Positions 2,005-64,000 are shown, numbered from the stretch's first letter. The stretch is 64,000 nt of DNA from Salinivirgaceae bacterium (GCA_024405635.1 JAKSOL010000001.1:1-64000); one strand, 5' to 3'. Notes: a model not told the origin generated them from the sequence alone. Numbers and translations: made by a program.

Positions 2005-2041
2005 AGTAGTATTAATCAAATACCATCATTAAAAGAAGAAA

Positions 2042-2390
2042 GCATCAATAATAGCAAAGTGTATCTATCGTATTTGATGCAAAACGTGTAACATTTAGGA
2101 TAATCTTACCAATCGACAGAAAGAGACCTCTTTTGAGTTTATTAAAGAAATTGCCCCACATGGCGGCAAGTAACAAAACTAGTGTTGAGCATTGTCGATA
2201 GTCAACCTTATCGAGGTGAAGGGCAAAGTTCTGGAAACGAAACAAGATTGTATTATCTACCTATAGTTTTTTTAGCAGCCGTATTATCAATAGGGCAAGG
2301 CTTCCAGTAAAAGGATACTGCATCTCTATTGACGTCATCTAGTAAAAGAAAAATAAGCAGTGTTAGTCAGCATGGTTTTAACAGAGTACA
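2042..2390 (+). pseudogene. Eroded relic of a radical SAM gene paralogous to 3805-4857
   Basis: Colinear similarity by eye: tgatgcaaaacgtgtaacatttaggataat vs cgatgcaaaatgtgtaatatttgggacaac; LLKKLPHMAASN vs LLEKLPHMEACN; ggatactgcatctctattga vs ggataccgtatttctattga. Contains stops and indels. Confidence 0.7.
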
Positions 2391-2588
2391 CATCAACTAT
2401 CTGTAACAATTGTGCATAGGTGTTATATGTCTTAAGCAAGATTGTGAGTAATTAACCTTAAAATATAATATCCCTATAAAATTTAGGTTAAGGTTGTAAA
2501 AAAATAGTTTAAGTTAGGATATTGTTAAGGTTAAATAGTAGTTAACATTATGGTTGTTAAATAGAGTGGATAATGATAACTTTATTAT

Positions 2589-3794: not shown

Positions 3795-3804
3795 GAAATA
3801 ACAC

Positions 3805-4857: not shown

Positions 4858-4922
4858 TGTTGTGGTAATAAATAATCACAAAAGAATAGCCATATAATTC
4901 TTAACTCCACAAACAACAATAA

Positions 4923-6029: not shown

Positions 6030-6154
6030 GTTCTTCAATCTGTTTTGTTATAAGAGCATATATCTTCTACCAAAAGAAATTTGATATAGAATAGACCAAC
6101 AATTGCTGCAACTGTGTCGCAGTTACATTTGTGTTTGTACCTAAAATTCAATCT

Positions 6155-6198
6155 TGCCGTAAAAAAATTACGGCAGGGTGTTATTTTTATTACTTTTG
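6155..6198 (+). promoter_or_regulatory. Palindromic operator-like site plus Bacteroidota -7 element
   Basis: TGCCGTAA-N5-TTACGGCA at 6155-6175; TACTTTTG (TAnnTTTG) at 6191-6198, just upstream of ATG 6226. Confidence 0.55.
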
Positions 6199-6225
6199 TA
6201 ATTGCGAACAATATAAAAGACGAAC

Positions 6226-7332
6226 ATGTTAGCCAAGTTTGCAGTTAAAAATTATAGAGGGTTCAAGGAAAAGATAGAGTTGGACTTATCTCATCCAGCC
6301 AATTACGAATTCAATGATTTTGCTATTAAAAATGGCATTGTAAAAAATGGCATTGTATATGGGCCTAATGGTTGTGGAAAGACAAATTTAGGACTTGCTA
6401 TTTTTGATATAGTGAATCACCTTTCGCAAAAGATGCGTCATCCAGACTATTATTCAAAGAATTTCGTATATGCTGGTGCACCAAACTATTTTGTTGATTT
6501 TGAATACACGTTTAAATTTTCTAGTATAGAACTGTTCTATTGTTATTCTAAGGATACAAAAGGAGAGTTAAGAAAGGAGTCTCTTTCTGTAAATGGAATA
6601 GAGTTGTTTCGTCGTGCCGAAAGCAAACTCAGTATAGATTCCAAGACATTTCCAATAGCAAATGACATGAAACGTCAGTTGGAAATTAATGTTAGTAATG
6701 TATCTATACTAGGTTTTATACTCATGTACGTTCCAATAGATGACAAGGATAGTTATCTAATAAAGTTGAAACAATTTGTAGATTCTATGTTGTGGTTCCG
6801 CTCTCTTCGTCAGAATGAGTTTATTGGCTTGGAAACAACACCTACACAACTAGAAGAATTTGTCATTTCAAACAACTACATCAAAGATTTTCAGGATTAT
6901 TTAGAGAAGGTTAGTGGACAAAAATACCATTTCGTTAATCAATCAAACAAAGACAAGCAACTAGTATGTGAAATAGATGGGCATATCGCATTGTTCAGCG
7001 TAGTAATGTCATTGGGAACAGAGGCTTTACTTCTATTGTTTTATTGGACAAAGAAACTTGACTCTGCATCTTTTGTATTCATTGACGAATTTGATGCATT
7101 CTATCATTTTAAATTGTCAACAGAGGTATGCAGACTTCTTTTTCAAAGCAATTGTCAACTATTCTTGTCTTCGCACAATACATATTTAATGGCTAACACA
7201 TTGTTGCGTCCAGATTGTAATTTCATAATCACTGACAATAAAATAAAACCGCTGAACGAATGTACAGACAAGGATTTGCGTTTTGGCCACAATATTGAGA
7301 AACTATATAGAGGCAATATCTTTGCTGTATGA
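6226..7332 (+). CDS. ABC-type ATPase (AAA_21/AAA_15, RloA/AriA-like)
   Basis: Walker A GPNGCGKT, degenerate signature MSLGT, Walker B VFIDEFD, H-loop SSHN; no TM segments. Confidence 0.85.
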   Translation: MLAKFAVKNYRGFKEKIELDLSHPANYEFNDFAIKNGIVKNGIVYGPNGCGKTNLGLAIFDIVNHLSQKMRHPDYYSKNFVYAGAPNYFVDFEYTFKFSSIELFYCYSKDTKGELRKESLSVNGIELFRRAESKLSIDSKTFPIANDMKRQLEINVSNVSILGFILMYVPIDDKDSYLIKLKQFVDSMLWFRSLRQNEFIGLETTPTQLEEFVISNNYIKDFQDYLEKVSGQKYHFVNQSNKDKQLVCEIDGHIALFSVVMSLGTEALLLLFYWTKKLDSASFVFIDEFDAFYHFKLSTEVCRLLFQSNCQLFLSSHNTYLMANTLLRPDCNFIITDNKIKPLNECTDKDLRFGHNIEKLYRGNIFAV

Positions 7333-8138
7333 GATTGTTCATTTTTGAGGGAGAAGCCGAAGAAAGAGTTTTCAAAACACTAAAGCACTTGTTCATGAGC
7401 AACGAGCATGAAATAGTGTGTGTGTTTCGTAGCAACATTTATGCTCTTTATTCAAGACTAAAGAAACATAGTGTGTTTGAGTCGGAAATAGCAAATGAAC
7501 TTGACATTGTTAGTGTACTGAACGAGTTGCTTCTTGAGTCTGGAGATTATACATTGGAGCCTTATGTGAATGAGGTTTTTGCTGAGGTCTTTCTGTTTTT
7601 CGATTATGATTTTCACGATAAGCGTGGTACTCTACAAGAAAATAACAACCATTTACTTGAAATGATGTTGTACTTTTCAGACGAAACTGGGAATGGTAAA
7701 CTCTATATAAATTATCCTATGTTGGAGGCTTATCGTTATATAAAACACATCCCTGATTCTGATTATGTCAATTATCTAGTAGACATAGAAAAGAGTATGA
7801 CATTTAAGAGATTGACATCGGAATTTTCTGCTTATTCAGTGGACCACTTTGCACTTTCTGAAAGTGATTGGGAGTCAAAAAACAAAAGAGATAAAAGATT
7901 GGTTGATGTTAAGAAAAATTGGGTAGGTATCATACCAATGAATGTATCAAAGGCCAACTTTATTTGTACTGAAAGAAATGAGTTGCCATTAAAAAAGGAC
8001 GATGTTTGCCAAATACGTATTTTTAATAATCAACTCACAAAATATGTTGCCCAAGAACCAAGTCGGGTGGCAGTCCTTAGCGCATTTCCTCTATTCTTAT
8101 ATGAATATCTTAAGCCAGAAGTTTTAAGTGTAGGTTAA
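7329..8138 (+). CDS. Hypothetical protein with TOPRIM-like motifs (RloB/AriB-like)
   Basis: IFEGEAE (EGxxE) and FFDYD (DxD), plus NYPMLE. ATGA overlap with the ATPase. Confidence 0.6.
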   Translation: MRLFIFEGEAEERVFKTLKHLFMSNEHEIVCVFRSNIYALYSRLKKHSVFESEIANELDIVSVLNELLLESGDYTLEPYVNEVFAEVFLFFDYDFHDKRGTLQENNNHLLEMMLYFSDETGNGKLYINYPMLEAYRYIKHIPDSDYVNYLVDIEKSMTFKRLTSEFSAYSVDHFALSESDWESKNKRDKRLVDVKKNWVGIIPMNVSKANFICTERNELPLKKDDVCQIRIFNNQLTKYVAQEPSRVAVLSAFPLFLYEYLKPEVLSVG

Positions 8139-8230
8139 ATATTGTAAAAACTCTGTATGTAATATCCTAATCCAAAAACTTGGACCAAAAGGATGCATAA
8201 AAAACAGCACAGTTAACTCGGCTAACATCA

Positions 8231-8299
8231 CTCACAAGTTTGTCAGTTTTCACCTCACAATCTTGTCAATTTTTATCTCACAAGTTTGTCAGTTTTTAG
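8231..8299 (+). repeat. Three tandem 23-bp repeats (CTCACAA[GT/TC]TTGTCA[G/A]TTTTnnn)
   Basis: Units start at 8231, 8254 and 8277, and abut the -7 element TATATTTG at 8300-8307. Confidence 0.95.
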
Positions 8300-8337
8300 T
8301 ATATTTGTGGCGTTAACATTAAGTTTTACAGTTAATT

Positions 8338-9600
8338 ATGGCTAATTACTTAAAACGCTATGCTGAGGCTGAAATAGAACGGGCGCTTGCGTCGTCGGGA
8401 GCGGTGTTGATAGCTGGCCCAAAATTCTGTGGCAAAACAACAACGGCAATGCAATTTGCCAAAAGTGCAATTAGTTTAAATACCGCAGCAACCATCGGAT
8501 TGGCAAAAATGGAGCCTGGCAATATGCTGCAAGGCGATGTGCCTCGTGTAATTGACGAGTGGCAAACTGTGCCCGACATTTGGAACGAAGTACGTGCTAA
8601 AGTTGACCAAGTGGGCAAGTTTGGTCAATTTATACTAACAGGCAGCTCAACTCCTGCCGATAAAACACAGATTCACCATTCAGGAGCAGGTCGCATAACA
8701 ACTGTAAAAATGTTGCCAATGTCGTTGTCGGAGTCGCAAGATTCAAAAAAAACGGTTTCGTTGACGGAGCTTTTTACAAATCAAAACGCTAAGGTATTTG
8801 ATATGAACGAAGGGCATCAATTGTCAGATTCCGCTTTTTTTGTTTGCCGCGGCGGATGGCCATTGTCGTTAAACAGCAATCGCAAGGTGGCCCTTGATGT
8901 TACCAAAAACTACTACAAAGGGTTGTTTAACTTTGAGTATAGCGAGAACGAGAAATTTAGGAACAAAAAGCCTGAGATATTGCAAATGGTGCTTCGTAGT
9001 TATGCACGAAACATATCAACCGAGGCATCGATACAAACAATAATTGCTGATGTTACGGCATCGAACCGTCGCACAATGAGCGCCAATACATTTGAGGACT
9101 ACATGGATGCGTTGCGCGATTTGTTTATTATTGAAGATATTGAGGCTTGGAATCCGAATTTGCGAAGTAAAACCGTTGTTAGAACAACACCAACGCGCCA
9201 TTTTGTTGATCCGTCAATAGCATGTGCAGCGTTGAAAATATCGCCAGCAATGCTTATGCGCGATTTAAATTCGTTTGGTTTGCTTTTTGAAGATATGGTG
9301 GTTAGAGACCTAAAGGCTTACGTTTCAACACTAGGTGGCAGTGTTATGCATTACCGCGATAGTAGAGGGCTGGAGTGCGATGCTGTTGTTGTGCTTGATG
9401 ATGGTAGATGGGCGTTGGTTGAGGTTAAGTTGGGCGGCGATGATTTGGTTAACGAAGGAGCTGCGCATCTTTTGAAAATGCAACGCGACATTGCAGAAGG
9501 TAATGGTCCTGAGTTTATGATGGTTATTACTGCTACAGGTCCAGCATATAGGCGCCCCGATGGTGTTTTGGTGGTTCCGCTTAATTGTTTAACTGCGTAG
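8338..9600 (+). CDS. AAA_14 ATPase with C-terminal DUF4143 (PD-(D/E)XK-like) domain
   Basis: GPKFCGKTT, IDEWQ, LTGS, HSGAGRI, GGWP; C-terminal HYRD...ECDAV...EVKLG. Confidence 0.9.
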   Translation: MANYLKRYAEAEIERALASSGAVLIAGPKFCGKTTTAMQFAKSAISLNTAATIGLAKMEPGNMLQGDVPRVIDEWQTVPDIWNEVRAKVDQVGKFGQFILTGSSTPADKTQIHHSGAGRITTVKMLPMSLSESQDSKKTVSLTELFTNQNAKVFDMNEGHQLSDSAFFVCRGGWPLSLNSNRKVALDVTKNYYKGLFNFEYSENEKFRNKKPEILQMVLRSYARNISTEASIQTIIADVTASNRRTMSANTFEDYMDALRDLFIIEDIEAWNPNLRSKTVVRTTPTRHFVDPSIACAALKISPAMLMRDLNSFGLLFEDMVVRDLKAYVSTLGGSVMHYRDSRGLECDAVVVLDDGRWALVEVKLGGDDLVNEGAAHLLKMQRDIAEGNGPEFMMVITATGPAYRRPDGVLVVPLNCLTA

Positions 9601-9646
9601 TGTGGAGTAAATGGCTGATTTGTAAGCAATTGTTGTTATTAAAAAC

Positions 9647-9810
9647 CTCACAATCTTGTCAATTTTTATCTCACAATCTTGTCAATTTTTATCTCACAAG
9701 TTTGTCAGTTTTTACCTCACAAGTTTGTCAGTTTTTGCCTTGTAAGTTGGTTCATTCAAGCAACTAAGTTAATTGTATCCAGCCAATAGCTATCGCCACT
9801 CACAATCTTG
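9647..9810 (+). repeat. Four tandem 23-bp repeats of the same family, plus a partial copy
   Basis: Units start at 9647, 9670, 9693 and 9716; degenerate unit at 9739; CTCACAATCTTG at 9799-9810. Same orientation as 8231-8299. Confidence 0.95.
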
Positions 9811-9842
9811 CATTGGCAAGCAAAAAACATTGCAAAATGTGT

Positions 9843-10442
9843 TTATTCGTTTATTGTAACGCCCTCAATTGACAATAGTTTGTTGCGCAATGTTTCGCTG
9901 TTCATCTTTCTGATTGACAATGTAATAGAACAAACATTGTCGTATTGTTGGTTGCGTTGTTCGGGCTGTTCGTCTTTAATTACTTTCATCACACTGTTCA
10001 TGGTTTCGTAGCCAAAACTGATGGTGAAGGTGTCCATTTCAAATTGTTCAACAATTTGGTTGTTGGCAATGGCATCGGCTGCAGCGCTGCGATAGGCGTT
10101 TATGAGTCCAGGTACACCAAGTTTAGTGCCGCCAAAGTATCGAACCACCACAATTAGTATGTTAGTTAGGTTGTTTGACTGAATTTGCCCCAAAACAGGA
10201 GGCCCCGAAGAGTTTGAAGGCTCGCCGTCGTCGCTGCATCGGTAGGTTTTCATGTCGCAGCCAAGTCGAAAAGCGTAAACGTGATGTCGGGCATCAAAGT
10301 AAGTCTTTTTAAGTTCCTTAATGAGTTCGCGCACTTCGTCTTCGGTGGTTACAGGGTAGGCAAAGGCCAAAAAACGGCTGCCTTTTTCTTTGTAAACACC
10401 CTCTGATGTTGTGGCAATGGTGAGAAACTTATCGTCGGTCAT
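9843..10442 (-). CDS. yigZ: YigZ/IMPACT family protein
   Basis: EKGSRF, ARHHVYA, SDDGEPS, VVRYFGGTKLGVPGLINAY. Confidence 0.93.
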   Translation of the reverse strand: MTDDKFLTIATTSEGVYKEKGSRFLAFAYPVTTEDEVRELIKELKKTYFDARHHVYAFRLGCDMKTYRCSDDGEPSNSSGPPVLGQIQSNNLTNILIVVVRYFGGTKLGVPGLINAYRSAAADAIANNQIVEQFEMDTFTISFGYETMNSVMKVIKDEQPEQRNQQYDNVCSITLSIRKMNSETLRNKLLSIEGVTINE

Positions 10443-12460: not shown

Positions 12461-14283
12461 TTTTCTCTAAGTTTTCGGAATCGCGAGCGAGCTTCGCGAA
12501 CAAAGATGCTGCTTTCGTATTCGCTCATAATGCGAAGGTAAATATTCATGGCAGCTTGGGTGTTGTTGTTTTGCTCTTCAATTTTAGCAATTTGCATTAG
12601 CGCGTTATCGGCCAGAATTTCGTATTGCCATTTTTGTGAAATTGTTTCAAAAAGACTTTTTGCGTTTGCGGTATCGCCTTGAACCATAATTATTTGAGCT
12701 TTCAAATAAAGCGCTTCGTCGTTTAGTGCATCTTCGGGATAAAGGGTTATTAAACTGTCGAGAGTGGCAAGCGCTTTGGTATTTTGGTGTTGGTAGTGAA
12801 GCAGGTCGGCCGAGGCATATAGTTGCATGGCGTGTTCGGTAGAATCGCCCCAACCGGTGTTTTCTTCAATTAAAAGCGACAAGGCGGCAGCATCGTTTGC
12901 AATGAACTTTTCGGTGCTGGCTTTCAGCGCGTTAAGTTGTGTTTGTGCCCAACCAAAATCGCCAATGTAGTAAGCCAGTTTGGCCTTGCGGAACTTAGCT
13001 TCGGCACCCACATCGTTGTTAGGATTGGCATCGGCAACGTGGGTGTAGGCTATTGTGGCATCAAACATTCGGCCTTGCATAAGGTACACGTCGGCAAGTT
13101 CAATTTCAATTTCTCCGCGGTCGGTTTTTGCAATGTCGCGGCGGTCTTTAATGTCTTCAAGCAGAAATTGTGCGTCGGCAGTTTTGTTTAGGTAAAAGGC
13201 CTTTAGTTTGGCAAGGTTGCGCACCATGTCAATGTTGTCGGCGCTTATTCCTTCTTCGTCAAGAGCTGTGGTAATTGCTTCTTCAAGTCGTTCGTAATCG
13301 GCAATTGAGTTGTCTAATTCAAGTTCGATGCGAGTAAACATTACTTGCAACATTTCGCTACGAGCGGCAAACATAAACTCACGGTTTCTACAATTTTCAA
13401 TAGCGTATTGGTAAGCGGCAATGGCGGTGTTAAAGTCGTTGCCAGTTGTGGCTTGTCGTGCCAGTTCAACCACTCGGCGGCCACCTTCTTCAAGTCGTCG
13501 GTCAAGTGCTTTAACCTGAAAAAGAGCCATTTCGTATTCGCCTTGCTGAACCATAAGCCACACAAGCAGTTCGGCAAACACAGTTCGGTCGGGGTAGATT
13601 TGCGTGTATTTCAGCAGTTTGCTTTTTAGCAAATCGACCAGGCTATTGTCGATGTCGTTGTAAACGGCGGCTTGAAGGTGGTTTTGTACATTTTGCAAAA
13701 AGTCGTCGCTAACGCGCAGTTGTTCAAGATATTCGTCAATCATCTTGCTATAGTTGCGCTGATACATATACACTTGCGCCAATTCGGTGTGAAATGGATA
13801 TGTTGAAACTTTGCGGCCCTCGATGTAAACCTGCTCGGCATATTGGTACAACCCTTTGTTAATGAACCCATTGGCCAAGGTTGTTATTTGCGAGGCATCG
13901 GCTTCAATTTTTTTAATTAACTGATTGTAAAGCTTTTCGGCTTTTTCTTCGCGCTTGGTTTTTGAGTAAACATAGCCCAAGTCTATAACATACTTGGGAT
14001 TTTGCTTTGTGGCTTTAAGTTGCTTGTTTACAAGAACTTCGGCTTCAGAAAAATTACTTGTATGAATAAGGCACGAGTACAAGTATGAGTAATAAACGTC
14101 GCTGCCCGTTTGGTTAAAAAGTTGAGAAAAAATGTCGCCAGCCTTTTGGTAGTCGCCGTTGCGGTAGTATTGCATTGCAAGTTGGTTTGGTGTTAAAGGT
14201 TGCGACTTGGGCTTTTGTTGAGCTGATGCGCCAACGCAAAAGCAAGCAAGCAGCAATGCCACACAAAACCGATGCAATTTCAT
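12457..14283 (-). CDS. Exported TPR protein
   Basis: Signal peptide and repeated TPR-like helices; LKAST...IANDA motif. Confidence 0.82.
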   Translation of the reverse strand: MKLHRFCVALLLACFCVGASAQQKPKSQPLTPNQLAMQYYRNGDYQKAGDIFSQLFNQTGSDVYYSYLYSCLIHTSNFSEAEVLVNKQLKATKQNPKYVIDLGYVYSKTKREEKAEKLYNQLIKKIEADASQITTLANGFINKGLYQYAEQVYIEGRKVSTYPFHTELAQVYMYQRNYSKMIDEYLEQLRVSDDFLQNVQNHLQAAVYNDIDNSLVDLLKSKLLKYTQIYPDRTVFAELLVWLMVQQGEYEMALFQVKALDRRLEEGGRRVVELARQATTGNDFNTAIAAYQYAIENCRNREFMFAARSEMLQVMFTRIELELDNSIADYERLEEAITTALDEEGISADNIDMVRNLAKLKAFYLNKTADAQFLLEDIKDRRDIAKTDRGEIEIELADVYLMQGRMFDATIAYTHVADANPNNDVGAEAKFRKAKLAYYIGDFGWAQTQLNALKASTEKFIANDAAALSLLIEENTGWGDSTEHAMQLYASADLLHYQHQNTKALATLDSLITLYPEDALNDEALYLKAQIIMVQGDTANAKSLFETISQKWQYEILADNALMQIAKIEEQNNNTQAAMNIYLRIMSEYESSIFVREARSRFRKLREN

Positions 14284-14301
14284 ACCGTTCTGCTGTAAAA
14301 A

Positions 14302-14760
14302 TTATCTCAATCGGTCGGCCGATTTTACAAGGTCGTCGTCTTTTTTAATGCCGCGATATGCAAGATATTGCAACACTATCATAATTACAGGAGCCGCTAG
14401 CCACAAGTCTAAACCATTGAAATCGGAATTCAAACTGCTTTTTAATGCGCTAAACGAGCCAATCATGAGTGCAAGTTGTGCAATGCAAAGTACAATGTTG
14501 ATGCGAGTTACAAGCATTTGTTTGGTGCGGTTGCGGAACATAAAAATTGCAATTACAGTAAGCAAAAGTAGCGAGGTTGAAATAGCAGCAAGAGGCACCA
14601 ACTTTGCGTTTAATCCGGCGTTGGGAATGGTGTGGCAAACGGTGGCGGTTATAATGCTATCGGGATTGTTGATGTTAAAAGATGCAAAAGGGTGGCTAAA
14701 AAGAACAGCACAAATTGCAGCCGAAATAATTAGATAAATGGTTTGAATGCGTTGAATCAT
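14302..14760 (-). CDS. DUF4293 family membrane protein
   Basis: MIQRIQTIYL start and LAYRGIKKDDDLVKSADRLR end. Confidence 0.88.
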   Translation of the reverse strand: MIQRIQTIYLIISAAICAVLFSHPFASFNINNPDSIITATVCHTIPNAGLNAKLVPLAAISTSLLLLTVIAIFMFRNRTKQMLVTRINIVLCIAQLALMIGSFSALKSSLNSDFNGLDLWLAAPVIMIVLQYLAYRGIKKDDDLVKSADRLR

Positions 14761-31756: not shown

Positions 31757-33085
31757 ATGAAAAAGGTTGCGGTAATATTATTCAGCTTACTAACATTTAT
31801 CCTCCCATCGGTCAATGCTCAAGACATTGACGAAGATTATTTGTCGGTTTTGCTTGAGGAGGATGAAGAAGATTCAAATCTTGCTTTCAAACCAGTTCTT
31901 GGTTTAGGTGTGGGTTCCTTTTCGTTTTTTGGCGATGTAACCGATTATTTGAGCTCTCCAGCAAACGGCATAACTAGTTATAGATTGGGAATTAGCCGTG
32001 TTATTGGCAAGTGTTTCGATATGGAGTTCCACGGAACAATGGGCTCGGTTGGAGGTAATCAATACAATGGTTCTGCAACCGATACGTTGAATTTCCGTTC
32101 ACAATTGTTTATGGGTGGCGTTTCGGTTTATTACAATTTTAACCATTTGCTTATCCGTAAACGACCTATTCATCCTTATGTGTCGTTGGGTTTGGAGGTC
32201 TTTCAGTTTTCGCCTAAGGGTGATTTGAAAGACAAAAACGGCAACTGCTACAATTATTGGAAAGACGGTTCAATTCGCGACGCTTCTGGTAATGTTATTT
32301 CTCGCGATTACGAATACGAAACTGGATTGCGTGAACTGACTGACCAAAATTACTCAAAAACAACAGTTGCTATTCCTTTCGATTTGGGAGTTAACTTTAC
32401 CATAACTAACCGTGTTACTTGCCGTACAGGTGCTGCAGTTCACGTGCTGATGTCTGATTATGTTGACAATGTTAAAGGTGGCAAGGGTTGGAAAAACGAT
32501 ATTGTGATGAATACATACGTATCCTTGTCGGTTGACTTGTTCTCGTCTGATGAGGAGTTGGTGGCAGTTGAAAACTTCCGTAACTTGAAATTTACCGTAA
32601 CCGACCATATGGACGAAGATGGCGATGGCGTTGATGACTTTAACGATGAGTGTCCAGGTACTCCTGCAAAAGTTAAGGTTTATCCTAATGGTTGCCCTGT
32701 CGATAGCGACCACGATGGCGTTCCAGATTATCTTGACAAGCAAAAAGATACTCCAATTGGAAAAAATGTTGTGGTTGATGCCGATGGTGTAAAAATGTCA
32801 GATTCACAAGTTATTTCATTATTGTATAATCCTGACGCTATTACTCGTAATAAAGTTAAGATATACAATGATGCAGCTGAAGCTGCTGCAACTGACTCAG
32901 AAGAGGAGCAAGATGACGTAAAACAAAAGGGTATTCCTGATAAATTTAAGCATGTTGATATAAATGGAGACCGATATATTTCGCACGAGGAGTTGCAACT
33001 TGCTATTGATGCAATTTTTGAAGGAAAAAGCACACTTACTCCTGCTGATATCAGTGAGTTACAAGACTTCTTCTTTAAACAATAA
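31757..33085 (+). CDS. Outer-membrane beta-barrel with TSP3-like Ca-binding repeats and an EF-hand
   Basis: Signal peptide, amphipathic beta strands, DEDGDGVDDFNDECPGTP, DSDHDGVPDYLD, DINGDRYISHEE. Confidence 0.72.
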   Translation: MKKVAVILFSLLTFILPSVNAQDIDEDYLSVLLEEDEEDSNLAFKPVLGLGVGSFSFFGDVTDYLSSPANGITSYRLGISRVIGKCFDMEFHGTMGSVGGNQYNGSATDTLNFRSQLFMGGVSVYYNFNHLLIRKRPIHPYVSLGLEVFQFSPKGDLKDKNGNCYNYWKDGSIRDASGNVISRDYEYETGLRELTDQNYSKTTVAIPFDLGVNFTITNRVTCRTGAAVHVLMSDYVDNVKGGKGWKNDIVMNTYVSLSVDLFSSDEELVAVENFRNLKFTVTDHMDEDGDGVDDFNDECPGTPAKVKVYPNGCPVDSDHDGVPDYLDKQKDTPIGKNVVVDADGVKMSDSQVISLLYNPDAITRNKVKIYNDAAEAAATDSEEEQDDVKQKGIPDKFKHVDINGDRYISHEELQLAIDAIFEGKSTLTPADISELQDFFFKQ

Positions 33086-39207: not shown

Positions 39208-39282
39208 TCGGGGTAGCAGGATTCGAACCTGCGACCTCCTGCTCCCAAAGCAGGCACACTAACCGGGCTGTGCTATGCCCCG
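39208..39282 (-). tRNA. tRNA-Pro(TGG), CCA not encoded
   Basis: Minus strand CGGGGCATAGCACAGCCCGGTTAGTGTGCCTGCTTTGGGAGCAGGAGGTCGCAGGTTCGAATCCTGCTACCCCGA; anticodon TGG, T-loop GTTCGAATC. Confidence 0.96.
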
Positions 39283-55788: not shown

Positions 55789-58700
55789 ATGGCAAAAGAG
55801 AAAAAATTCATCACATGTGATGGAAACCAAGCCGCAGCTCATGTGGCCTACATGTTCTCCGAGGTTGCAGCCATCTACCCAATTACTCCGTCATCAACCA
55901 TGGCAGAGTATGTTGACGAGTGGGCAGCACAAGGACGCAAGAATATTTTTGGTGAAACAGTGTTAGTGCAAGAAATGCAAAGCGAGGGTGGAGCAGCAGG
56001 AGCTGTTCACGGTTCATTGCAAGCAGGAGCTCTAACAACCACTTTCACAGCATCGCAAGGTTTGTTGCTGATGATTCCAAATATGTACAAAATTGCAGGT
56101 GAATTTTTGCCAAGCGTGTTCCATGTTTCAGCACGTACATTGGCTTCTCACTCGCTATGTATTTTTGGTGACCATCAAGACGTTATGGCTTGCCGTCAAA
56201 CCGGTTTTGCAATGTTGGCTGAGGGTTCAGTACAAGAGGTTATGGACCTTGCAGGTGTTGCTCACCTTTCAACCATCAAAAGCCGTGTGCCTTTCTTGAA
56301 CTTCTTTGATGGTTTCCGTACTTCACACGAGATTCAAAAGATTGAAATGCTTGAGAACGATGACCTAGCTGGTCTTATCGATCAAAAAGCATTGGCTGAA
56401 TTCCGTAGCCGTGCTCTTACTCCTGAGCATCCAGTTGCTCGTGGTATGGCAGAAAACCCTGATACATTCTTTACACATCGTGAGAGCTGCAACCCATATT
56501 ACGAAGCAGTTCCTGCAATTGTTGAGGAATACATGAACAAAGTGAGCGAAATAACAGGTCGTTCATATCATTTGTTCGATTATTATGGTGCTGCTGATGC
56601 AGAGCGTGTGATTGTAGCAATGGGTTCGGTAACCGAGTGCATTCGCGAAACAATTGACTATCTTGCTGCAAAAGGTGAGAAAGTTGGTTTGGTTGCAGTT
56701 CACTTGTATCGCCCATTCTCAGTTAAACACTTGTTGGCTGCAGTTCCAAAATCGTGCAAAGTTCTTACTGTACTTGACCGCACTAAAGAACCAGGAGCAA
56801 ATGGCGAACCATTATTGCTTGACGTTAAAGACGCATTTTATGGCGTTGAGGGCGCTCCAGTAATTGTTGGAGGTCGTTATGGTTTGGGTTCAAACGATAC
56901 CACACCTGCTCAAATTATTGCTGTTTACAAAAACATGGCTCTACCAACACCAAAAGATCACTTTACCGTTGGTATTGTTGACGATGTTACATTTACTAGC
57001 CTTCCAAAAGAAGAGGAAGTTGCAGTTGGTGGACAAGGCATGTTTGAGGGTAAATTCTATGGCTTGGGTGCTGATGGTACTGTTGGTGCAAACAAAAACT
57101 CAATCAAGATTATTGGTGAAACAACTGATAAACGTTGCCAAGCTTACTTCTCATACGACTCTAAAAAATCGGGAGGTTTCACTTGCTCGCACTTGCGTTT
57201 TGGCGACAGCCCAATCCGTTCAACATACTTGGTAAACACACCAAACTTTGTTGCATGCCACGTGCAAGCTTACTTGCACATGTACGACGTGACCAAAGGT
57301 TTGCAAAAGAATGGTTCGTTCTTGTTGAACACCATTTGGGACGGCGAAGAATTGGCAAATAACTTGCCAAACAAAGTGAAAGCTTACTTTGCTAAAAACA
57401 ACATTAAAGTTTACTATATCAACGCAACCAAAATTGCACAAGAGATTGGTCTAGGTAACCGTACCAACACTATTCTTCAATCGGCATTCTTCCGCATTAC
57501 TGGTGTTATTCCAGTTGAGAAAGCAGTTGAGGAGATGAAACACTTTATTGTAAAATCGTACGGCAAAAAAGGCGAAGACGTTGTAAACAAAAACTATGCA
57601 GCTGTTGACCGAGGTGGCGAGTACAAAGAGTTGGCAGTTGATCCAGCTTGGGCAAACTTGGCCGAGGACAAAAAAGCAGCAAACAACGATCCTGATTTCA
57701 TCAACAACGTAGTTCGTGTAATCAACGCACAAGATGGCGATACACTTCCAACTTCGGCATTTAAAGGCATTGAGGATGGTACATGGCCACAAGGTACTGC
57801 AGCATACGAAAAACGTGGTGTATCGGCATTCGTTCCACAATGGAATGCTGCAGATTGTACAGAGTGTAACCGTTGCGCATTTGTTTGTCCTCACGCTTGC
57901 ATCCGCCCATTGGTAATGGATGCTGAAGAGGCTAAAGGCATTAAAGGTGAGGTTCGCGAAATGAAAGCTCCAGCTACAATGAAGGGCATGATGTTCCGTA
58001 TGCAAGTTGGTGTAATGGACTGCTTGGGTTGCGGCAACTGTATTGATGTTTGCTTGGGCAACAACGAGGAGAAAGGCAAAAATGCTCTTAAAATGGTTCC
58101 ATTTGATCCAGAATCAGAGTCAGCTAAAGTTGAGGCTGCTAACTGGGAGTATGGCGTTAAGAACGTTACCAGCAAACAAGATTTGGTTGACATTACCGCA
58201 AACGCTAAAAACTCACAATTTGCACAACCATTGTTTGAGTTCTCGGGTGCATGCTCTGGTTGCGGTGAAACACCATACGTTAAACTTGTAAGCCAATTGT
58301 TTGGCGACCGCCAAATGGTTGCAAATGCTACAGGTTGCTCGTCAATCTATTCAGGTTCAATTCCTTCAACTCCTTACACAACCAACGCTAAAGGTCAAGG
58401 TCCAGCTTGGGCAAACTCATTGTTTGAGGACTTCTGCGAGTTTGGTCTTGGTATGGATTTGGCAAACGAGAAGATGCGCAAACGCATCGAGTCTTTGTTG
58501 AACAAAATGATTGAAAGCGACAAATCGTCAGAGGGTTACAAAGAGGCAGCAAAAGAGTGGATTGCAAACAAAGATACCGCGTCAGGTAGCCGCGCTGCAG
58601 CTGAAAAGTTGATTCCATTTATTAAAGAGAGTGCTGCAGCTGGTTGCCCAGTTTGCAAACAACTTGACGAAATGAGCCACTTCCTTGTAAAACGTTCGCA

Positions 58701-59349
58701 ATGGATTATTGGTGGTGACGGTGCTTCATACGATATCGGTTACGGAGGTCTTGACCATGTTATTGCATCTGGTCGCGACGTAAATATCTTGGTTCTTGAT
58801 ACCGAGGTTTACTCAAACACCGGTGGCCAATCGTCAAAAGCAACACCTCTTGGTGCTATTGCAAAATTTGCTGCATCGGGTAAACGTGTTCGCAAAAAAG
58901 ACCTTGGTATGATTGCTACAACTTATGGTTATGTTTATGTAGCTCAAGTTGCAATGGGCGCTGACCAAGCACAAACACTTAAAGCTTTGAAAGAGGCTGA
59001 AGCTTATCCAGGTCCTTCAATCGTTATTGCATACGCTCCATGTATCAACCACGGTTTGAAGAAAGGTATGGGTCACGCACAAGCTGAGGAAGCTGCAGCT
59101 GTAAAATGCGGTTACTGGCACTTGTGGCGCTTCAACCCAGCACTTGAGGCTGAAGGTAAAAACCCATTCACTCTTGACTCAAAAGAGCCAGATTGGAGCG
59201 GATTCCAAACATTCCTTGAGGGTGAGGTTCGCTTTGCATCAGTTAAGAAACAATTCCCAACTGAGGCAGCTGAACTTTACGCAGCATGCGAGGAAATGGC
59301 TAAAAAACGCTATCAATCGTACATTCGCATGACCAAGATGGAATACTAA
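55789..59349 (+). CDS. nifJ: Pyruvate:ferredoxin (flavodoxin) oxidoreductase
   Basis: YPITPSS, EMQSEGGAAG, two ferredoxin CxxCxxCxxxC motifs, GACSGCGE, GGDG TPP motif; strong codon bias. Confidence 0.97.
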   Translation: MAKEKKFITCDGNQAAAHVAYMFSEVAAIYPITPSSTMAEYVDEWAAQGRKNIFGETVLVQEMQSEGGAAGAVHGSLQAGALTTTFTASQGLLLMIPNMYKIAGEFLPSVFHVSARTLASHSLCIFGDHQDVMACRQTGFAMLAEGSVQEVMDLAGVAHLSTIKSRVPFLNFFDGFRTSHEIQKIEMLENDDLAGLIDQKALAEFRSRALTPEHPVARGMAENPDTFFTHRESCNPYYEAVPAIVEEYMNKVSEITGRSYHLFDYYGAADAERVIVAMGSVTECIRETIDYLAAKGEKVGLVAVHLYRPFSVKHLLAAVPKSCKVLTVLDRTKEPGANGEPLLLDVKDAFYGVEGAPVIVGGRYGLGSNDTTPAQIIAVYKNMALPTPKDHFTVGIVDDVTFTSLPKEEEVAVGGQGMFEGKFYGLGADGTVGANKNSIKIIGETTDKRCQAYFSYDSKKSGGFTCSHLRFGDSPIRSTYLVNTPNFVACHVQAYLHMYDVTKGLQKNGSFLLNTIWDGEELANNLPNKVKAYFAKNNIKVYYINATKIAQEIGLGNRTNTILQSAFFRITGVIPVEKAVEEMKHFIVKSYGKKGEDVVNKNYAAVDRGGEYKELAVDPAWANLAEDKKAANNDPDFINNVVRVINAQDGDTLPTSAFKGIEDGTWPQGTAAYEKRGVSAFVPQWNAADCTECNRCAFVCPHACIRPLVMDAEEAKGIKGEVREMKAPATMKGMMFRMQVGVMDCLGCGNCIDVCLGNNEEKGKNALKMVPFDPESESAKVEAANWEYGVKNVTSKQDLVDITANAKNSQFAQPLFEFSGACSGCGETPYVKLVSQLFGDRQMVANATGCSSIYSGSIPSTPYTTNAKGQGPAWANSLFEDFCEFGLGMDLANEKMRKRIESLLNKMIESDKSSEGYKEAAKEWIANKDTASGSRAAAEKLIPFIKESAAAGCPVCKQLDEMSHFLVKRSQWIIGGDGASYDIGYGGLDHVIASGRDVNILVLDTEVYSNTGGQSSKATPLGAIAKFAASGKRVRKKDLGMIATTYGYVYVAQVAMGADQAQTLKALKEAEAYPGPSIVIAYAPCINHGLKKGMGHAQAEEAAAVKCGYWHLWRFNPALEAEGKNPFTLDSKEPDWSGFQTFLEGEVRFASVKKQFPTEAAELYAACEEMAKKRYQSYIRMTKMEY

Positions 59350-59371: not shown

Positions 59372-59409
59372 AACCGCCCTTGTGCCATTAGGTGCAAGGG
59401 CGGTTTTTT
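59372..59409 (+). terminator. Intrinsic terminator
   Basis: AACCGCCCTTGTGCC ATTA GGTGCAAGGGCGGTTTTTT. Confidence 0.88.
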
Positions 59410-59721
59410 AATGAAAATTGTAATATGGGCTAATTATTAAAAAGACATTATAGTATTTAATGCACATTTTAAAGTACGAGAGTGCTTGTTGTTTTTTTTA
59501 GATCATAGGATGTAATGCATGCCGTGATTGTGGTATATAATTTCATGAATATATTTTGGTTATGGCGTCAGATTCATTGAGTTTTTCAATTTCTTTTTGT
59601 CTTCATATAATATTATCATTTGCGTCAACTTGCAAAATGTACAGAAAATGCAAAAGTTAATTTTGTCAAATTTGTAGCACAGAAACGTATTCTTTGCCAA
59701 AAAAATCGTTTATTTGCCATA

Positions 59722-60088
59722 ACACACACGCTGAGGGCTCCAAACAATAGAGTGCGGGCGTGTATGTGAACATATACAAGACTGGCGTTTATTTTCGCCT
59801 TGTCAGTTGACTATTCGAAACTACCACTTTTGAATTTACAGCCAATGACATGGTAAGAGGTAGATGCCACGGGGTGGTATATTCACTCCGTAGTGTGCTG
59901 TGAGCAATGCTCATAGTACACTTATGGGGTCATATATATCCAACAGCGTGGGTGTCTCTCTTTCTGTCTAGCTGTAAAGGCTGTGGTAGGCCTCGGATAG
60001 TGGACAGACGGAGTAAGACTTCCACGTTTTTGTTTTGTATATGGGGAGAATAGTACATATAGGAAACTAGTCATCGGGAGTCTGACTA
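59722..60088 (+). ncRNA. Large multi-stem structured RNA (ncRNA or 5' leader), family unassigned
   Basis: Nested helices: 59771-82/60032-43 (12 bp), 59810-18/59993-60001, 59821-27/59983-89, 59835-42/59971-78. Hairpins at 59722-67, 59870-90, 59892-922 (14 bp) and 60068-88. Many G-U pairs. Confidence 0.75.
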
Positions 60089-60105
60089 TAGGAAAGGCAC
60101 AAAGC

Positions 60106-61566
60106 ATGTCTAACATTATAGCAAATAACCCATATCGATTCCTTGGTATATATTCCAATTCATCCATCAAGGATCGTGTCGCCAATGCAAATAAAATAAA
60201 GGCATACTCTAAAGTTGGCAAAAACATAGAATTCCCTTCGGATTTAAACCACATGCTTCCTGCCGTCCATCGTGATATGGACGAATTAGAAAAAGCATCT
60301 GCCAGTTTGAATATGCCAATAGACCAGCTTAAGAATGCCTTTTTCTGGTTTGTTAATGCCACATCGATGGATGGCATTGCATTGGGACATTTGCAATCTG
60401 GTGATACAGATAAAGCTATTGACATCTTCGGCAAAAAGGAAACCTTCTCATCTCTTCTTAATCTAGCCGTAATTGCTTCTATACAAGGTGACAAAAAAAG
60501 GTACGTTACAAATCTTATTAAGATTATCCATGACGAAACATACCGCACAGGCCTCATCTGTGCCGTTTGTGGAGATACATTTCATATTGATGAAGATGAA
60601 TTAATCCATCTTTTCATAGACGAACTGGCGAAAGTTGCCAATGCATCCGAGCTGCCATCATTGTTCGAAAATCCACATTCAACAAGTGAAGACAAAAACT
60701 ATGTCGCAAAGCTATCCATTGGTGAACCTATCTCTGCAATAAACAATGCTATTGCGACAGCAAAAGACGCGAACAACGATGCAGAATCCCAGTTTAATGC
60801 AGGATTACTACTCATGACTTCAACAAAGAAGCATCTTGATGTAGTTAAATCCACATTGGGGACTGACGACTTGCAATATCAAATGCTGGCAGACAAGTTG
60901 GCACAGACCATCCTTCAATGCGGCATCAACTATTACAACAAAACAGACGAAGATGACTACATCTCCATTGATAAAGCATACAAATTGCAGCACTATGCAG
61001 AAACTGTTGCTGTCGGTTCGATGCTAAAAAGCAGATGCAAAGAGAATGTGGATATTCTAAATAAGAAAAAGAAAGATTTACCTCCCAAGGAAGTAGCTTC
61101 TGAAGTTAAATACATAACCAACGAGTTAGTCAAATTCTGTAAGTTGCCTGACAAAATATGTCATGCCAAGGATTTGCTTAACAACACAAAGCCTCATCTA
61201 CAAAGCATGAAGGCTAAATTAGGAACATACAACGATTACTACTTAAAAATATCTACAGGCATCGTCAGCAAGGCACTTCAAAATATTATTGAGGAAGTTA
61301 ATGCCGTGCAAAATCTAGACTACTTAGCCATACCAGAAGTCTTTAAATCAGCATGGGAAGCCACTTTGTTAATGGATAAATTTGATATGGAAAGTGACTT
61401 CAAGTCTAGTCGCTATAACATGAATCGCACCACACTAAAAAAAATGTGCGATGAACTAGGCATAAAAACAAGCACTAGCATTTTCAACAACAGTGACGAA
61501 AACTGGGGGTGTTGGATAGTCGCAGCAATCGTTTTTATAATCATCTGTATCTCACAATGTCATTAA
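60106..61566 (+). CDS. Helical protein with J-domain-like start (no HPD) and C-terminal TM anchor
   Basis: NPYRFLGI..NSS resembles J-domain helix I; TPR-like helices; tail WGCWIVAAIVFIIICI. Confidence 0.6.
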   Translation: MSNIIANNPYRFLGIYSNSSIKDRVANANKIKAYSKVGKNIEFPSDLNHMLPAVHRDMDELEKASASLNMPIDQLKNAFFWFVNATSMDGIALGHLQSGDTDKAIDIFGKKETFSSLLNLAVIASIQGDKKRYVTNLIKIIHDETYRTGLICAVCGDTFHIDEDELIHLFIDELAKVANASELPSLFENPHSTSEDKNYVAKLSIGEPISAINNAIATAKDANNDAESQFNAGLLLMTSTKKHLDVVKSTLGTDDLQYQMLADKLAQTILQCGINYYNKTDEDDYISIDKAYKLQHYAETVAVGSMLKSRCKENVDILNKKKKDLPPKEVASEVKYITNELVKFCKLPDKICHAKDLLNNTKPHLQSMKAKLGTYNDYYLKISTGIVSKALQNIIEEVNAVQNLDYLAIPEVFKSAWEATLLMDKFDMESDFKSSRYNMNRTTLKKMCDELGIKTSTSIFNNSDENWGCWIVAAIVFIIICISQCH

Positions 61567-61570
61567 AAAT

Positions 61571-62518
61571 ATGAAAGTACTAAAACATCTAATCATTATC
61601 GGAATGTGCGTTACACCTGCACTTGTTTACGCACAAATCGACAGCACTGCTTTCGATAAGCAGCAGATAATAACTATTGAACAGAAATTAAACGTTCAAC
61701 AAGAAAGGTTGTCAGAATTGGACAAAATGATTAATGAGAAAGCTTCTATAAGCCAAATTAATTCTGTTCAAGCGAACTTGACAAACCTCAAATCGGCTAT
61801 AGAAGAGCAAAAAGTTTCTGTTGAGAACCTTATGTCTATGATTGAGCAGAATAAGCAAAATATTAAGAAAACTGCTGATCAACTTGGCGTTGAAATTGAC
61901 AAAACAAAAGTTTCTCTCAACGCAAAAGCCAACAACGACGATTTGCAAAACAAATCAATCATAGGCTTTATATTACTGACTTTGCTTGCTGTTATCCTTG
62001 CAGTTATCGCGTTCGTATTTGGCAAACGCATAAGCAAGAGTCATACAGATGTTGACGAGCTAAAACAGAAAGCAGAAAAAATCAATGAAGACATCCTCAA
62101 CAAGTTCTCTGTTGAAATGAACGAAATGCAGAAGATTTCTGCATCGCTTAGTGCACTATCCGACGTGCAGAAGTCTAACGGCAATGCAGAACAAGACCAC
62201 TCGCTCATCAAGACACTTGCCGACCGCATTACATTTATGGAAATGACACTCTATAAAATGGACAAAGACGTAAGGGGCTACAAGCAATTGTCTAAATCTA
62301 TAGCACAGATGAAAGATAATTTGCTGGCTAATGGCTACGAGCTTGTAGATATGTTAGGTAAAGAGTATAATGAAGGAATGAGGGCAACTGCTAATTTTAT
62401 TGATGACGATTCAATAGAACTAGGCAAACAAATCATCACAGCAATCATCAAGCCTCAGATCAACTACAAAGGTGTAATGATACAAGCAGCACAAATAACA
62501 GTAAGTCAAAACAACTAA
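61571..62518 (+). CDS. Transmembrane coiled-coil protein with GrpE-like C-terminal domain
   Basis: Signal peptide (VYA|Q), heptad coiled coil, TM IIGFILLTLLAVILAVIAFVFG, then G..Y...IITAIIKPQINYKGVMIQAAQITVS, resembling the GrpE beta head. Confidence 0.65.
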   Translation: MKVLKHLIIIGMCVTPALVYAQIDSTAFDKQQIITIEQKLNVQQERLSELDKMINEKASISQINSVQANLTNLKSAIEEQKVSVENLMSMIEQNKQNIKKTADQLGVEIDKTKVSLNAKANNDDLQNKSIIGFILLTLLAVILAVIAFVFGKRISKSHTDVDELKQKAEKINEDILNKFSVEMNEMQKISASLSALSDVQKSNGNAEQDHSLIKTLADRITFMEMTLYKMDKDVRGYKQLSKSIAQMKDNLLANGYELVDMLGKEYNEGMRATANFIDDDSIELGKQIITAIIKPQINYKGVMIQAAQITVSQNN

Positions 62519-62523
62519 ATACA

Positions 62524-64000
62524 ATGGCACAAGTAAAAATGAAATACGGAATTGACTTGGGAACAACCAATTCCGCAATATGCAAAATGGAGAATGGCGA
62601 ACCATCCATTAAGAAAACTGATACACTTAAAGATACTCTGCCTTCATGTGTGTCGTTCACAAAAAAGCAAGTTATTAAAGTAGGTGATAGCGCATACAAC
62701 GATTTACGCCAAGATAAATCAAGAGCAACTAAAACCCTGGCAAAAGGTAAAGAAAATGTCTTTATTGAATTCAAACGCACAATGGGCCTTGACACTCCAC
62801 ACGAGAGTTCAAACATGGGGCGGTCGTATTCGTCAGAAGAACTGTCGTCAGAAGTTCTGAAGGCATTAAAGTCGTTTGTTTCTGAAGACGCAATAAATGC
62901 TGCCGTAATCACTATACCGGCAAAATTCAAGGCCGACCAAATTGCTGCAACAAAAAGAGCAGCGACAATGGCCGGCATTGACCATTGCGAACTCCTGCAA
63001 GAACCTATTGCTGCATCTATGGCTTATGGACTTAGTTCGGCACAAAAGAATGGCACGTGGTTGGTTTTTGACTTTGGTGGTGGCACGTTCGATGCTGCAC
63101 TTTTGAGAGTAGAAGATGGTATTATGCAAGTGAAAGATACTGAGGGGGACAATTATCTCGGTGGCAAGAACTTGGATTATGCAATAGTGGATGGTGTTAT
63201 CATACCATACTTGAAAGAAAACTATAAAATTGACGGCATATTGTCAGATGACACCAAAAGAGAAATTCTTCGCGATGCCATGAAGTTCTATGCCGAACAG
63301 GCAAAGAATCAATTGTCTTTCAAAGAAAAATGTGACATCACTTCGCAACTGGATGAATTTGGAGAAGATGATGAAGGCAATGAGATAGAACTTGATATGG
63401 TTGTAACTCAGAGCCAAATAGCATCCGTAGTTGCTCCTGTATTCCAAAAGGCAATAGATATATGTAAGGACTTGTTGCAGCGAAACAACTTGTCTGGCAA
63501 CAATCTTGACTCGCTGATACTTGTTGGTGGACCGACATATTCACCAGTGCTACGTCAGATGCTAAAAGAGCAAATAACGTCCGGTGTTGATACAAGTATC
63601 GATCCAATGACAGCTGTTGCAAAAGGTGCTGCGCTTTATGCTTCAAGTATTGACAGCGAAGCCAAAGAAGAGATAAAAGCTGGGACTATCGCGTTGGATC
63701 TTTCGTATGAATCGAGCTCTGTCGAACAAGTTGAGTTTGTATCGGTAAAACTACTGCGAAATGAATGTACGGGTAATGTGCCGTCACAACTATTCGTAGA
63801 ACTCACACGCAATGACAAAGGCTGGTCGAGCGGAAAAGTTTCCATTAATGAGATAGGAGATGTCATTGAATGTCAGCTCATGGAAGGTAAGGCAAATTCG
63901 TTTGCTATTGTAGCATACGACGAAAAAGGCACGGTACTCCCATGCTTCCCGAACGAAGTAAATATCATGCAAGGCCTTGTCGTAGGCAATGCTGTATTAC
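62524..64000 (+). CDS. Specialised Hsp70 (DnaK-like) protein, 3' end outside the window
   Basis: Absent from the ORF track because no stop lies in the window. GIDLGTTNS, AVITIPA, QEPIAA, FDFGGGTFD, LGGKNLD, LVGGPT, AVAKGAA. Confidence 0.93.
   Translation, partial: MAQVKMKYGIDLGTTNSAICKMENGEPSIKKTDTLKDTLPSCVSFTKKQVIKVGDSAYNDLRQDKSRATKTLAKGKENVFIEFKRTMGLDTPHESSNMGRSYSSEELSSEVLKALKSFVSEDAINAAVITIPAKFKADQIAATKRAATMAGIDHCELLQEPIAASMAYGLSSAQKNGTWLVFDFGGGTFDAALLRVEDGIMQVKDTEGDNYLGGKNLDYAIVDGVIIPYLKENYKIDGILSDDTKREILRDAMKFYAEQAKNQLSFKEKCDITSQLDEFGEDDEGNEIELDMVVTQSQIASVVAPVFQKAIDICKDLLQRNNLSGNNLDSLILVGGPTYSPVLRQMLKEQITSGVDTSIDPMTAVAKGAALYASSIDSEAKEEIKAGTIALDLSYESSSVEQVEFVSVKLLRNECTGNVPSQLFVELTRNDKGWSSGKVSINEIGDVIECQLMEGKANSFAIVAYDEKGTVLPCFPNEVNIMQGLVVGNAVL

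Follow-up and report, generated by a model that had tools for sequence, protein, structure and literature searches.

Transcription attenuators of the trp type, T-box leaders, TRAP/PyrR attenuators and transcriptional riboswitches are 5' leaders that can form mutually exclusive hairpins, one of them at a U tract, with a shared strand as the pivot. The 5' untranslated region of the MS2 maturation gene and the hok mRNA control translation, and there, owing to the order of synthesis, a metastable local fold forms in preference to the equilibrium fold with its long-range pairs. Processive antitermination RNAs, such as HK022 put, the Bacillus EAR element, LoaP leaders, RfaH ops/JUMPstart and, in the available part of PMC11685472, Bacteroides UpxY opsX, lie just past the promoter and serve polysaccharide or horizontally acquired operons; the same part of that source has Bacteroides capsule leaders recruiting UpxY at ops pause sites. 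The leader described here resembles the first of these groups in its position, its exclusive hairpins and its U tract, the shared strand being the 3' strand of a long arm. Unlike the terminator/antiterminator leaders, it has no leader peptide, tRNA-binding features, recognizable aptamer or Rfam match; its antiterminator would be a rod of ~100 bp and not a short helix; and it would exchange four segments, pairing either a:b plus a':b' or a:b' plus b:a'.

The leader lies in the genome of a Salinivirgaceae bacterium, within a stretch of 64,000 nucleotides that we analyzed as a whole (the window; coordinates are on its + strand unless stated). A 750-nt spacer between the pyruvate:ferredoxin oxidoreductase gene (55789-59349, with its own terminator near 59375-59405) and the ORF at 60106 holds a strongly folding region, 59722-60105. 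Its minimum free energy (MFE) on the + strand is -147.8 kcal/mol, as against -107.4 +/- 6.0 kcal/mol in 100 dinucleotide shuffles (z -6.78; 0/100 as good). The - strand reaches just -116.1 kcal/mol, leaving the + strand of the RNA 32 kcal/mol more stable. An earlier note on this DNA had proposed a folded RNA at 59722..60088, richer in GC than its flanks, and had taken the G-U pairs as a sign of selection at the RNA level. These views held up: the region beats its shuffles and its homologs covary (see below); its GC content is 0.42-0.48, whereas the spacer ahead of it has 0.25-0.31 and the ORF start 0.34-0.37; and, in addition to the better folding of the + strand, the arms of 32 homologs contain 236 G-U as against 102 A-C oppositions. 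The region is a real, strongly conserved folded RNA.

At the gathering threshold of Rfam 15, a tRNA (39208-39282, - strand) was the sole match in the whole 64-kb window. When E values up to 10 were allowed, the leader region gave 18 chance-level matches, all far under gathering; 20 homologous leader loci gave no match, and with E values up to 1 allowed, the leader of locus L025 gave a single microRNA-like match. The leader RNA is matched by no family of Rfam 15, with Bacteroidales-1, Bacteroidales-2, 6S, EAR and the riboswitches all among those compared, so the suggestion of Bacteroidales-2 or another orphan motif had to be dropped. The literature that we consulted, including the available parts of PMC5737381, PMC8040213, 10.1101/2024.04.05.588293 and PMC11685472, offered no counterpart, with the reservation that supplementary lists may hold fragments. 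The family, of ~400 bases, is apparently uncatalogued so far.

We then looked for relatives of this RNA. Blastn with the window RNA against 40 relatives gave no match outside the window's own genome, and nhmmer against the loci of protein homologs gave none either, missing the true homolog at L013 too. An exact two-motif pattern, which was too strict, recovered the two known copies only (33 own-family genomes and a 301-genome sample of the other genus, each set counting the genome it was drawn around, and viral contigs). A second sequence pattern found nothing in viral contigs, nor did blastn with a typical leader member in phage and plasmid collections. The spacer at L013, from a Prevotella sp. 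MAG, has short motifs in common with the window (72% column identity) and folds to the window's architecture with other stem sequences (z -8.4). Since RNAalifold on the MAFFT alignment of this pair returned a scrambled structure, we used a covariance model instead, R1, built from the window's arm alone (232 positions, 86 pairs), which matches L013 at 49 bits. R1 found matches in 37/151 genomes sampled among the relatives of that of L013 (a single genome holding as many as five copies, with scores reaching 110 bits), in 40/151 genomes of a second sample from that genome's family, and in 14/32 other genomes of the window's own family, where one genus accounted for all of them (14/16, with 0/16 in six other genera). 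There was no match in 150 other genomes drawn evenly across the order. We collected 70 copies, and the same parts are common to all. The leader is thus a member of a large family that precedes restriction, defense and cell-surface genes in Prevotella-like gut bacteria.

The window's own genome has one copy of the leader; elsewhere genomes often carry 2-5 copies, and these are diverged, with scores from 110 to 51 bits in genome G491. The top scores of the window copy fall in the other family (110, 106 and 97 bits), with at most 72 bits in its own, which fits transfer of the leader and operon as a unit; on these scores, the unit may have been acquired in this way. On the opposite strand of the arm in the window (59776-60011, -), R1 still reaches 43.8 bits because the arm is near-palindromic, and reverse-strand matches of the family are to be discounted. 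On one contig, G921:C17, two copies face each other ~18 kb apart (14219-14459, +, and 32686-32924, -), as if two leader-driven units converged within one island.

Analysis of the collected copies gave the architecture of the leader. The -7-like TTTATTTG singled out in the earlier note (59709-59716, +), an imperfect TAnnTTTG, lies 91 nt ahead of the core. An exact TAnnTTTG occurs 50 to 150 nt ahead of the core in 55/70 copies, compared with 68/1560 control windows; the modal position is -87 to -105. The -91 position of TTTATTTG fits this placement, and it is a putative Bacteroidetes -7 promoter box of the leader. The 5' hairpin, P0 (59722-59767), is present in the MFE folds, and L013 has a hairpin at the corresponding position; the P0 sequence is variable among family members. 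The core is closed by P1, in which CATATACAAGAC (59771-59782) pairs with GTTTTGTATATG (60032-60043), the latter strand starting at the U tract. The two P1 strands of one copy pair better with each other than with those of other copies (-13.25 versus -11.03 kcal/mol, n=68; 0/2000 permutations, a count that, here and below, overstates independence, homologous copies being related). A small hairpin, P2 (GGCG...CGCC, 59784-59799), was predicted by RNAalifold from the MAFFT alignment of the 70 copies, with 6 pairs (one being, for example, GC:51 GU:15 AU:1), and its 3' strand opens the repeat 'a'.

Most of the core is the long arm, or rod, P3 (59800-60011), with a 5' strand at 59800-59905, an apical loop at 59906-59908 and a 3' strand at 59909-60011. 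Over its ~100 bp, 89.1% of the cells in 33 aligned rows are paired, as against 66.1% in shuffles (0/500) and 31-44% with slid partners, the alignment (A5) being fitted to the model and the slid control retaining that bias. Both sides change in 80/86 pairs; in helices 3, 4 and 6 the paired share is 97-99.6%, and a single position can show as many as four Watson-Crick pair types. Covariation supports the arm helices that the earlier note had drawn, ACTATTCGA/TCGGATAGT, CTACCAC/GTGGTAG, TTTACAGC/GCTGTAAA, GACA/TGTC and the apical AGTGTGCTGTGAGC/GCTCATAGTACACT, which are helices 3, 4, 6, 7 and 14 of the model (85-99.6% of cells paired). The proposed capping hairpin CGGGGTG/CACTCCG found no support: those bases sit in the continuous arm in both the MFE fold and the family model.

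Past the arm, the segment J (AGACTTCC, 60016-60023) pairs as a pseudoknot with the loop (60076-60083) of the last hairpin, P5 (TAGTCA, loop TCGGGAGTC, TGACTA; 60068-60088). J binds the downstream sequence of its own copy at -12.56 kcal/mol and that of other copies at -9.50 kcal/mol (0/2000 permutations, n=68), and the two partners covary, as in CACCC/GGGTG, GATACCC/GGGTATC, AAACATCC/GGATGTTT and GGTTCCC/GGGAACC, among others. Such comparisons of own and foreign strands bear out both the closing helix and the last hairpin as first drawn, the latter ending, as had been said, 17 nt ahead of the ATG at 60106.

The two strands of the arm also have other partners. The 5' strand alone can form the hairpin H1 (59783-59869), in which repeat 'a' pairs with repeat 'b', that is, the conserved base of the arm (GCUUUGUUUUUGG-type) with the middle of the same strand (CCAAGAACAAUGC-type). 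H1 is present in the MFE fold of a window transcript ending before the U tract, the 5' half alone folds to it in 65/70 copies, and its duplex is stronger within copies than between them (-17.49 versus -15.11 kcal/mol; 0/2000 permutations). RNAalifold on the 5' halves recovered P2 but not H1, so the assignment of H1 relies on the duplex and MFE tests.

The 3' strand can instead form a hairpin, T (59947-60026), between CGTGGGTGTCT..TCTGTC and ..GACAGA..AGACTTCCACG (60002-60026). T is a predicted alternative terminator hairpin: directly 3' of it lies the U tract (60027-60031, TTTTT, then GTTTTG), which also opens the 3' strand of P1. CG followed by YTTTT is nearly invariant in 65 aligned copies, which is in itself no proof of termination because P1 needs the U tract too. 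Folded alone, the 100 nt before the U tract form a long two-part hairpin in nearly every copy, the outer part pairing CGUGGGUGUUU with AAGCACCCACG and the inner part CUGUCUGUUU with AACAGGCAG. A stem of at least 6 contiguous bp ends at most 2 nt from the U tract in 44/65 copies, the other 21 falling below this threshold, and the mean energy of the 3'-half fold is -37.3 kcal/mol, compared with -25.5 kcal/mol in shuffles. At ~35 nt, including a mini-hairpin, the apical part of T is unusually large. In a MAFFT alignment that had not been fitted to this hairpin, 87.3% of the cells of T are paired, as against 79.1% in shuffles (0/500) and 42-48% with slid partners, and both sides change in 19/22 pairs.

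Arm and T have 59947-60011 in common. J, besides pairing with the P5 loop, is complementary over up to 11-12 bp to the arm 3' strand, and here again pairs better with its own copy (-15.2 versus -12.3; 0/2000 permutations; 38/68 copies with the segment located by pattern). When transcripts stop short of the U tract, the terminator fold is less stable than the best fold without T by a median of 4.8 kcal/mol (range -8.1 to +24.4; totals of about -100 to -130 kcal/mol in the four copies shown). It is the lower of the two in 13/65 copies, including that of the window, where it is the MFE fold at -126.2 kcal/mol, and the rod is thermodynamically favored in 52/65.

The leader thus has a putative promoter before it and the first ORF after it, in one orientation, and it contains a hairpin with a U tract and a structure that competes with this hairpin. 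Two mutually exclusive folds that both covary, with a hairpin at a U tract between promoter and ORF, are the signature of an attenuator. We therefore consider it somewhat more probable than improbable that these leaders are a family of transcription attenuators switching between a rod and a branched fold, each of ~400 nt, with its own Bacteroidetes promoter and ending shortly ahead of the start codon of an accessory gene or operon. Against this reading we count the lower energy of the rod in 52/65 copies, the large apical part of T, the 21/65 copies below the stem threshold and the lack of a conserved leader peptide. The earlier note had inferred a cis-regulatory leader of the antitermination or thermosensing kind. 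The RNA is indeed one of the + strand and a leader encoded in cis, and the antitermination type fits best, given the covarying hairpin at the U tract that competes with the arm; thermosensing has found no specific support.

Four segments of the RNA resemble each other in pairs, a~a' and b~b', and allow two global folds of similar energy. In the rod, b:a' and a:b' together build the ~100-bp arm, the P5 loop takes J into the pseudoknot and the closing helix takes the U tract; this would be the antiterminator state. In the branched fold, a:b forms H1, the tip is still a hairpin, and a':b' makes the predicted terminator hairpin against the U tract. We propose that, because a and b are synthesized first, the nascent chain would default to the branched, terminating fold, and that a shift to the rod would let RNA polymerase read into the gene; once it had passed, the P5 loop would hold J in place, and P1 the U tract. 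From this model we infer that termination at the U tract is probably real and that the choice between the folds is probably regulated. The proposed order of events recalls the MS2 maturation-gene leader and hok, in which a metastable local fold likewise precedes the long-range equilibrium fold by order of synthesis; unlike in these translational controls, the metastable fold would here contain the predicted terminator.

What might trigger the shift? A host factor, a ligand, pausing and the rate of elongation all come into question. As the window's genome has a single copy of the leader, we would favor a general factor or parameter of the host (pausing, NusA/NusG or elongation rate) over a dedicated regulator; factors specific to leader subtypes are possible. 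The leader has conserved unpaired bases and a platform-like switch. We recognized no aptamer-like junction in it, and an ORF of at least 8 codons starting with ATG occurs in at most 32/70 copies in any 15-nt bin, with no majority for a leader peptide. Contigs of one RNA library, from ~90% identical relatives, cover parts of the leader (leaving out 59388-59739 and 59828-59959), and one of them extends from 60011 to 60217, inside the ORF. Such libraries can contain DNA, so the evidence is weak; the contig that reaches the ORF is compatible with read-through.

We next analyzed the genes that follow the leader. In the window, the first is an ORF of 486 aa (60106-61566, +) of a hypothetical family confined to Bacteroidota, whose start codon lies 17 nt past P5. 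The downstream unit, seen in the window at 60106-64000 and in L012 at 1107-10014 (G000:C1:60106-69013), encodes, in order, this protein, a 315-aa coiled-coil protein, an 833-aa Hsp70-type ATPase (an Hsp70 ATPase domain followed by 430 C-terminal residues of no known family) and proteins of 206 and 284 aa. Beyond these five ORFs lie a fusion of a Ser/Thr kinase with an AAA+ domain, with weak NCBIfam matches to the antiphage models IteA and MADS6, and a 163-aa ORF. The Hsp70-type unit and its neighbors look like a defense-type island, for which PADLOC has no model. The 486-aa protein had no sequence match in Pfam, NCBIfam or PDB; it appeared J-domain-like by eye, and, with no match in those three databases, we do not claim a J domain. 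It is rare (8/401 genomes of the order), with one relative in the genome collection (L013, 40% identity) and six in metagenomes.

The earlier note had also raised the possibility of an RNA component of the downstream system, and the leader indeed adjoins an Hsp70-type operon in the window and in L013. These are the only such cases among the 65 copies with a downstream ORF, the RNA precedes dozens of unrelated genes, and at the four loci with 40-45% identical homologs of the 486-aa protein for which upstream DNA was available (L003 and L016-L018) another gene abuts upstream and R1 finds no match. This distribution refutes the idea of an RNA that serves the Hsp70-type system as its own subunit or guide, to which we assign practically no probability.

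In 65/70 copies, the leader is followed in its own orientation by an ORF of at least 80 aa. The five exceptions are two loci that end at most 50 nt past the core, L022 (686 nt of downstream sequence without an 80-aa ORF), L070 (a long ORF begins 6 nt past the core) and L032 (ORFs on the opposite strand only). We scanned 73 downstream ORFs, the first or second ORF of the 65 loci, with Pfam. DNA methyltransferases are the largest group of this cargo (20 loci), next to nucleases (TdeIII-type, MutH-like and PD-(D/E)XK), an AbiC-like protein, SF1 and SNF2 helicases, TerD, SPFH and DUF2971. The envelope-related cargo comprises BspA-type LRR proteins, GT2, acyltransferase_3, MBOAT, hexapeptide transferases, GtrA, a priming sugar transferase, CotH and DUF4595 lipoproteins, along with a NusG-like gene. 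The 51 upstream neighbors that we scanned are a mixture of housekeeping and defense genes, with no integrase or transposase. One of them (L062:1896-3227:-) matches RVT_1 (E 5e-13), the sole such case. We had considered a retron, as the msr-msd RNA likewise has a closing helix around a short hairpin and one long hairpin, and rejected it: no reverse-transcriptase domain was found in the 73 downstream ORFs, and RVT_1 in just that 1/51 upstream neighbors.

The multiple copies and the long inverted symmetry of the arm raise the question of a feature of the DNA without RNA function, be it a palindromic repeat, a MITE or an invertible promoter region. R1 scores the reverse strand too, at 43.8 bits, and restriction-modification, capsule and surface genes, the same classes as the leader's cargo, are those under promoter inversion in Bacteroides, which we counted in favor of this explanation. 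Unlike the Bacteroides invertons, the leader is an RNA in fixed orientation with no sign of inversion: both orientations would be expected of an inverton, but 65/70 copies point to the downstream gene. A MITE or palindromic repeat would be expected in near-identical copies without bias, but those within one genome are diverged (110 to 51 bits in G491) and show both the orientation bias and a strand bias in the excess of G-U over A-C (236 to 102). The 32 kcal/mol by which the + strand is more stable, the covariation of the pseudoknot and of the alternative folds, and the lack of integrases and transposases among the 51 upstream neighbors speak against it as well, and we consider a DNA-level feature very improbable.

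Three sequence variants of the helix-4 3' strand (59983-59989 in the window, and the matching place in L013 and others), GUGGUAG, UGCGAAG and UCCUAAG, track the class of the cargo. GUGGUAG precedes 21 defense or DNA genes and 3 surface genes, as against 2 defense and 12 surface genes for UGCGAAG, a correlation that we treat as a lead only, because we labeled the classes manually and because the copies are related to one another. The variant position is also the apex of the terminator hairpin. UGCGAAG has 7 bases in common with the Bacteroides fragilis PSE ops in the available part of PMC11685472, a likeness without statistical weight. In six copies of a methylase-linked subgroup (L023, L025, L027, L030, L034 and L035), an extra conserved block of ~120 nt, lacking in the window, lies about 92-128 nt past the core and contains TCTTTGACA. 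This motif matches one in the 16S-23S spacer that is boxA-like, GATCTTTGACAT, and is similar to the boxA of rRNA leaders, GTTCTTTGAAA (references from three leader-carrying genomes, the 16S rRNA being unassembled in the window's genome). The block may be a candidate site for Nus factors. The rRNA-type boxA motif has a shared position in the 6 copies of this one subgroup and occurs anywhere in 8/70 leaders.

These subtypes bear on a second explanation, in which the leader would be a platform for processive antitermination that loads a NusG-type paralog or modifies RNA polymerase for read-through of horizontally acquired operons, in the manner of put, EAR, the LoaP leaders and ops/UpxY; the hairpin at the U tract would then be the first terminator to overcome. 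The leader lies at a fixed distance past its promoter, as those RNAs do, its cargo includes genes for capsule, EPS and LPS modification, and the helix-4 subtypes track the cargo class. NusG-like first genes are found at L050 and possibly at L039 (from its N terminus by eye, with no Pfam match), and the TCTTTGACA of the methylase-linked subgroup resembles the rRNA spacer boxA. Unlike the known processive antitermination RNAs, the leader is much larger, has no sequence or model similarity to them (EAR and the other antitermination RNAs of Rfam gave no match) and is also found before what seem to be single short genes, often so among its cargo units; the likeness of helix 4 to ops is the 7-base match mentioned above. 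Such a platform would also leave the covariation of two exclusive folds unexplained, and we hold it possible but doubtful.

The distance to the start codon is relevant to a further explanation, an element of translation or mRNA stability, in which the pseudoknotted 3' domain, 10-30 nt ahead of the start codon, would set ribosome access without a Shine-Dalgarno sequence, or in which the 5' hairpin and the rod would protect the mRNA. The start codon is located 50-120 nt past the core in 39/65 copies, with an A-rich stretch between, and the pseudoknot covaries. According to the available part of 10.1101/2024.04.05.588293, the 5' UTRs of Segatella copri average about 70 nt and have no consensus ribosome-binding site, so that a leader of 400 nt is exceptional. 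In 25/65 copies, however, the gap exceeds 120 nt; the 20 nt immediately ahead of the ATG are not conserved apart from their A-richness; and the terminator-like fold would be left unexplained. Overall, a translational or stability element appears unlikely to us.

Could the RNA act on its own? It would then be a trans-acting RNA of ~310 nt ending at the U tract, for instance a protein sponge, with the downstream genes expressed by leakage. Its 3' end would have the hairpin plus U tract, and the long rod with conserved internal loops is reminiscent of protein-binding RNAs. Such an RNA would, however, not readily explain the strict co-orientation with the downstream gene or the 39/65 ORFs beginning 50-120 nt past the core. 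Furthermore, the pseudoknot and the closing helix, which both covary, use sequence past the U tract, and the copies within a genome are diverged (110 to 51 bits in G491). We regard a stand-alone RNA as quite unlikely.

Returning to the attenuator, which is the reading that we prefer, the leader could more specifically be a switch at the RNA level that turns mobile "contingency" cargo ON or OFF, with rod or cloverleaf chosen during transcription, either stochastically or by subtype-specific factors that read helix 4. This extension is speculative, and we would rather bet against it than for it. If it were true, each cell would choose whether to express a restriction, defense or surface-variation cassette, an RNA counterpart of the DNA invertons of Bacteroides, and newly acquired genes would be controllable in a new host because they bring their promoter and leader along.

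Prevotella and its relatives are dominant bacteria of the gut and rumen with few genetic tools, and to our knowledge almost no RNA regulation has been characterized in them. The leader is a new, widespread and unusually large element, probably of the attenuator type, with a distinctive four-segment rod/branched design and a striking cargo spectrum. Being large, rich in covariation and endowed with two selectable folds, it offers a tractable system in which to study folding switches during transcription. Other uses could be as a marker of accessory-gene cassettes and as a portable expression element where tools based on the Shine-Dalgarno sequence are lacking. The presence of one leader before restriction-modification, abortive-infection, helicase, capsule, LPS-modification and surface genes points to a shared control layer, which would join phage defense and surface variation in these bacteria.
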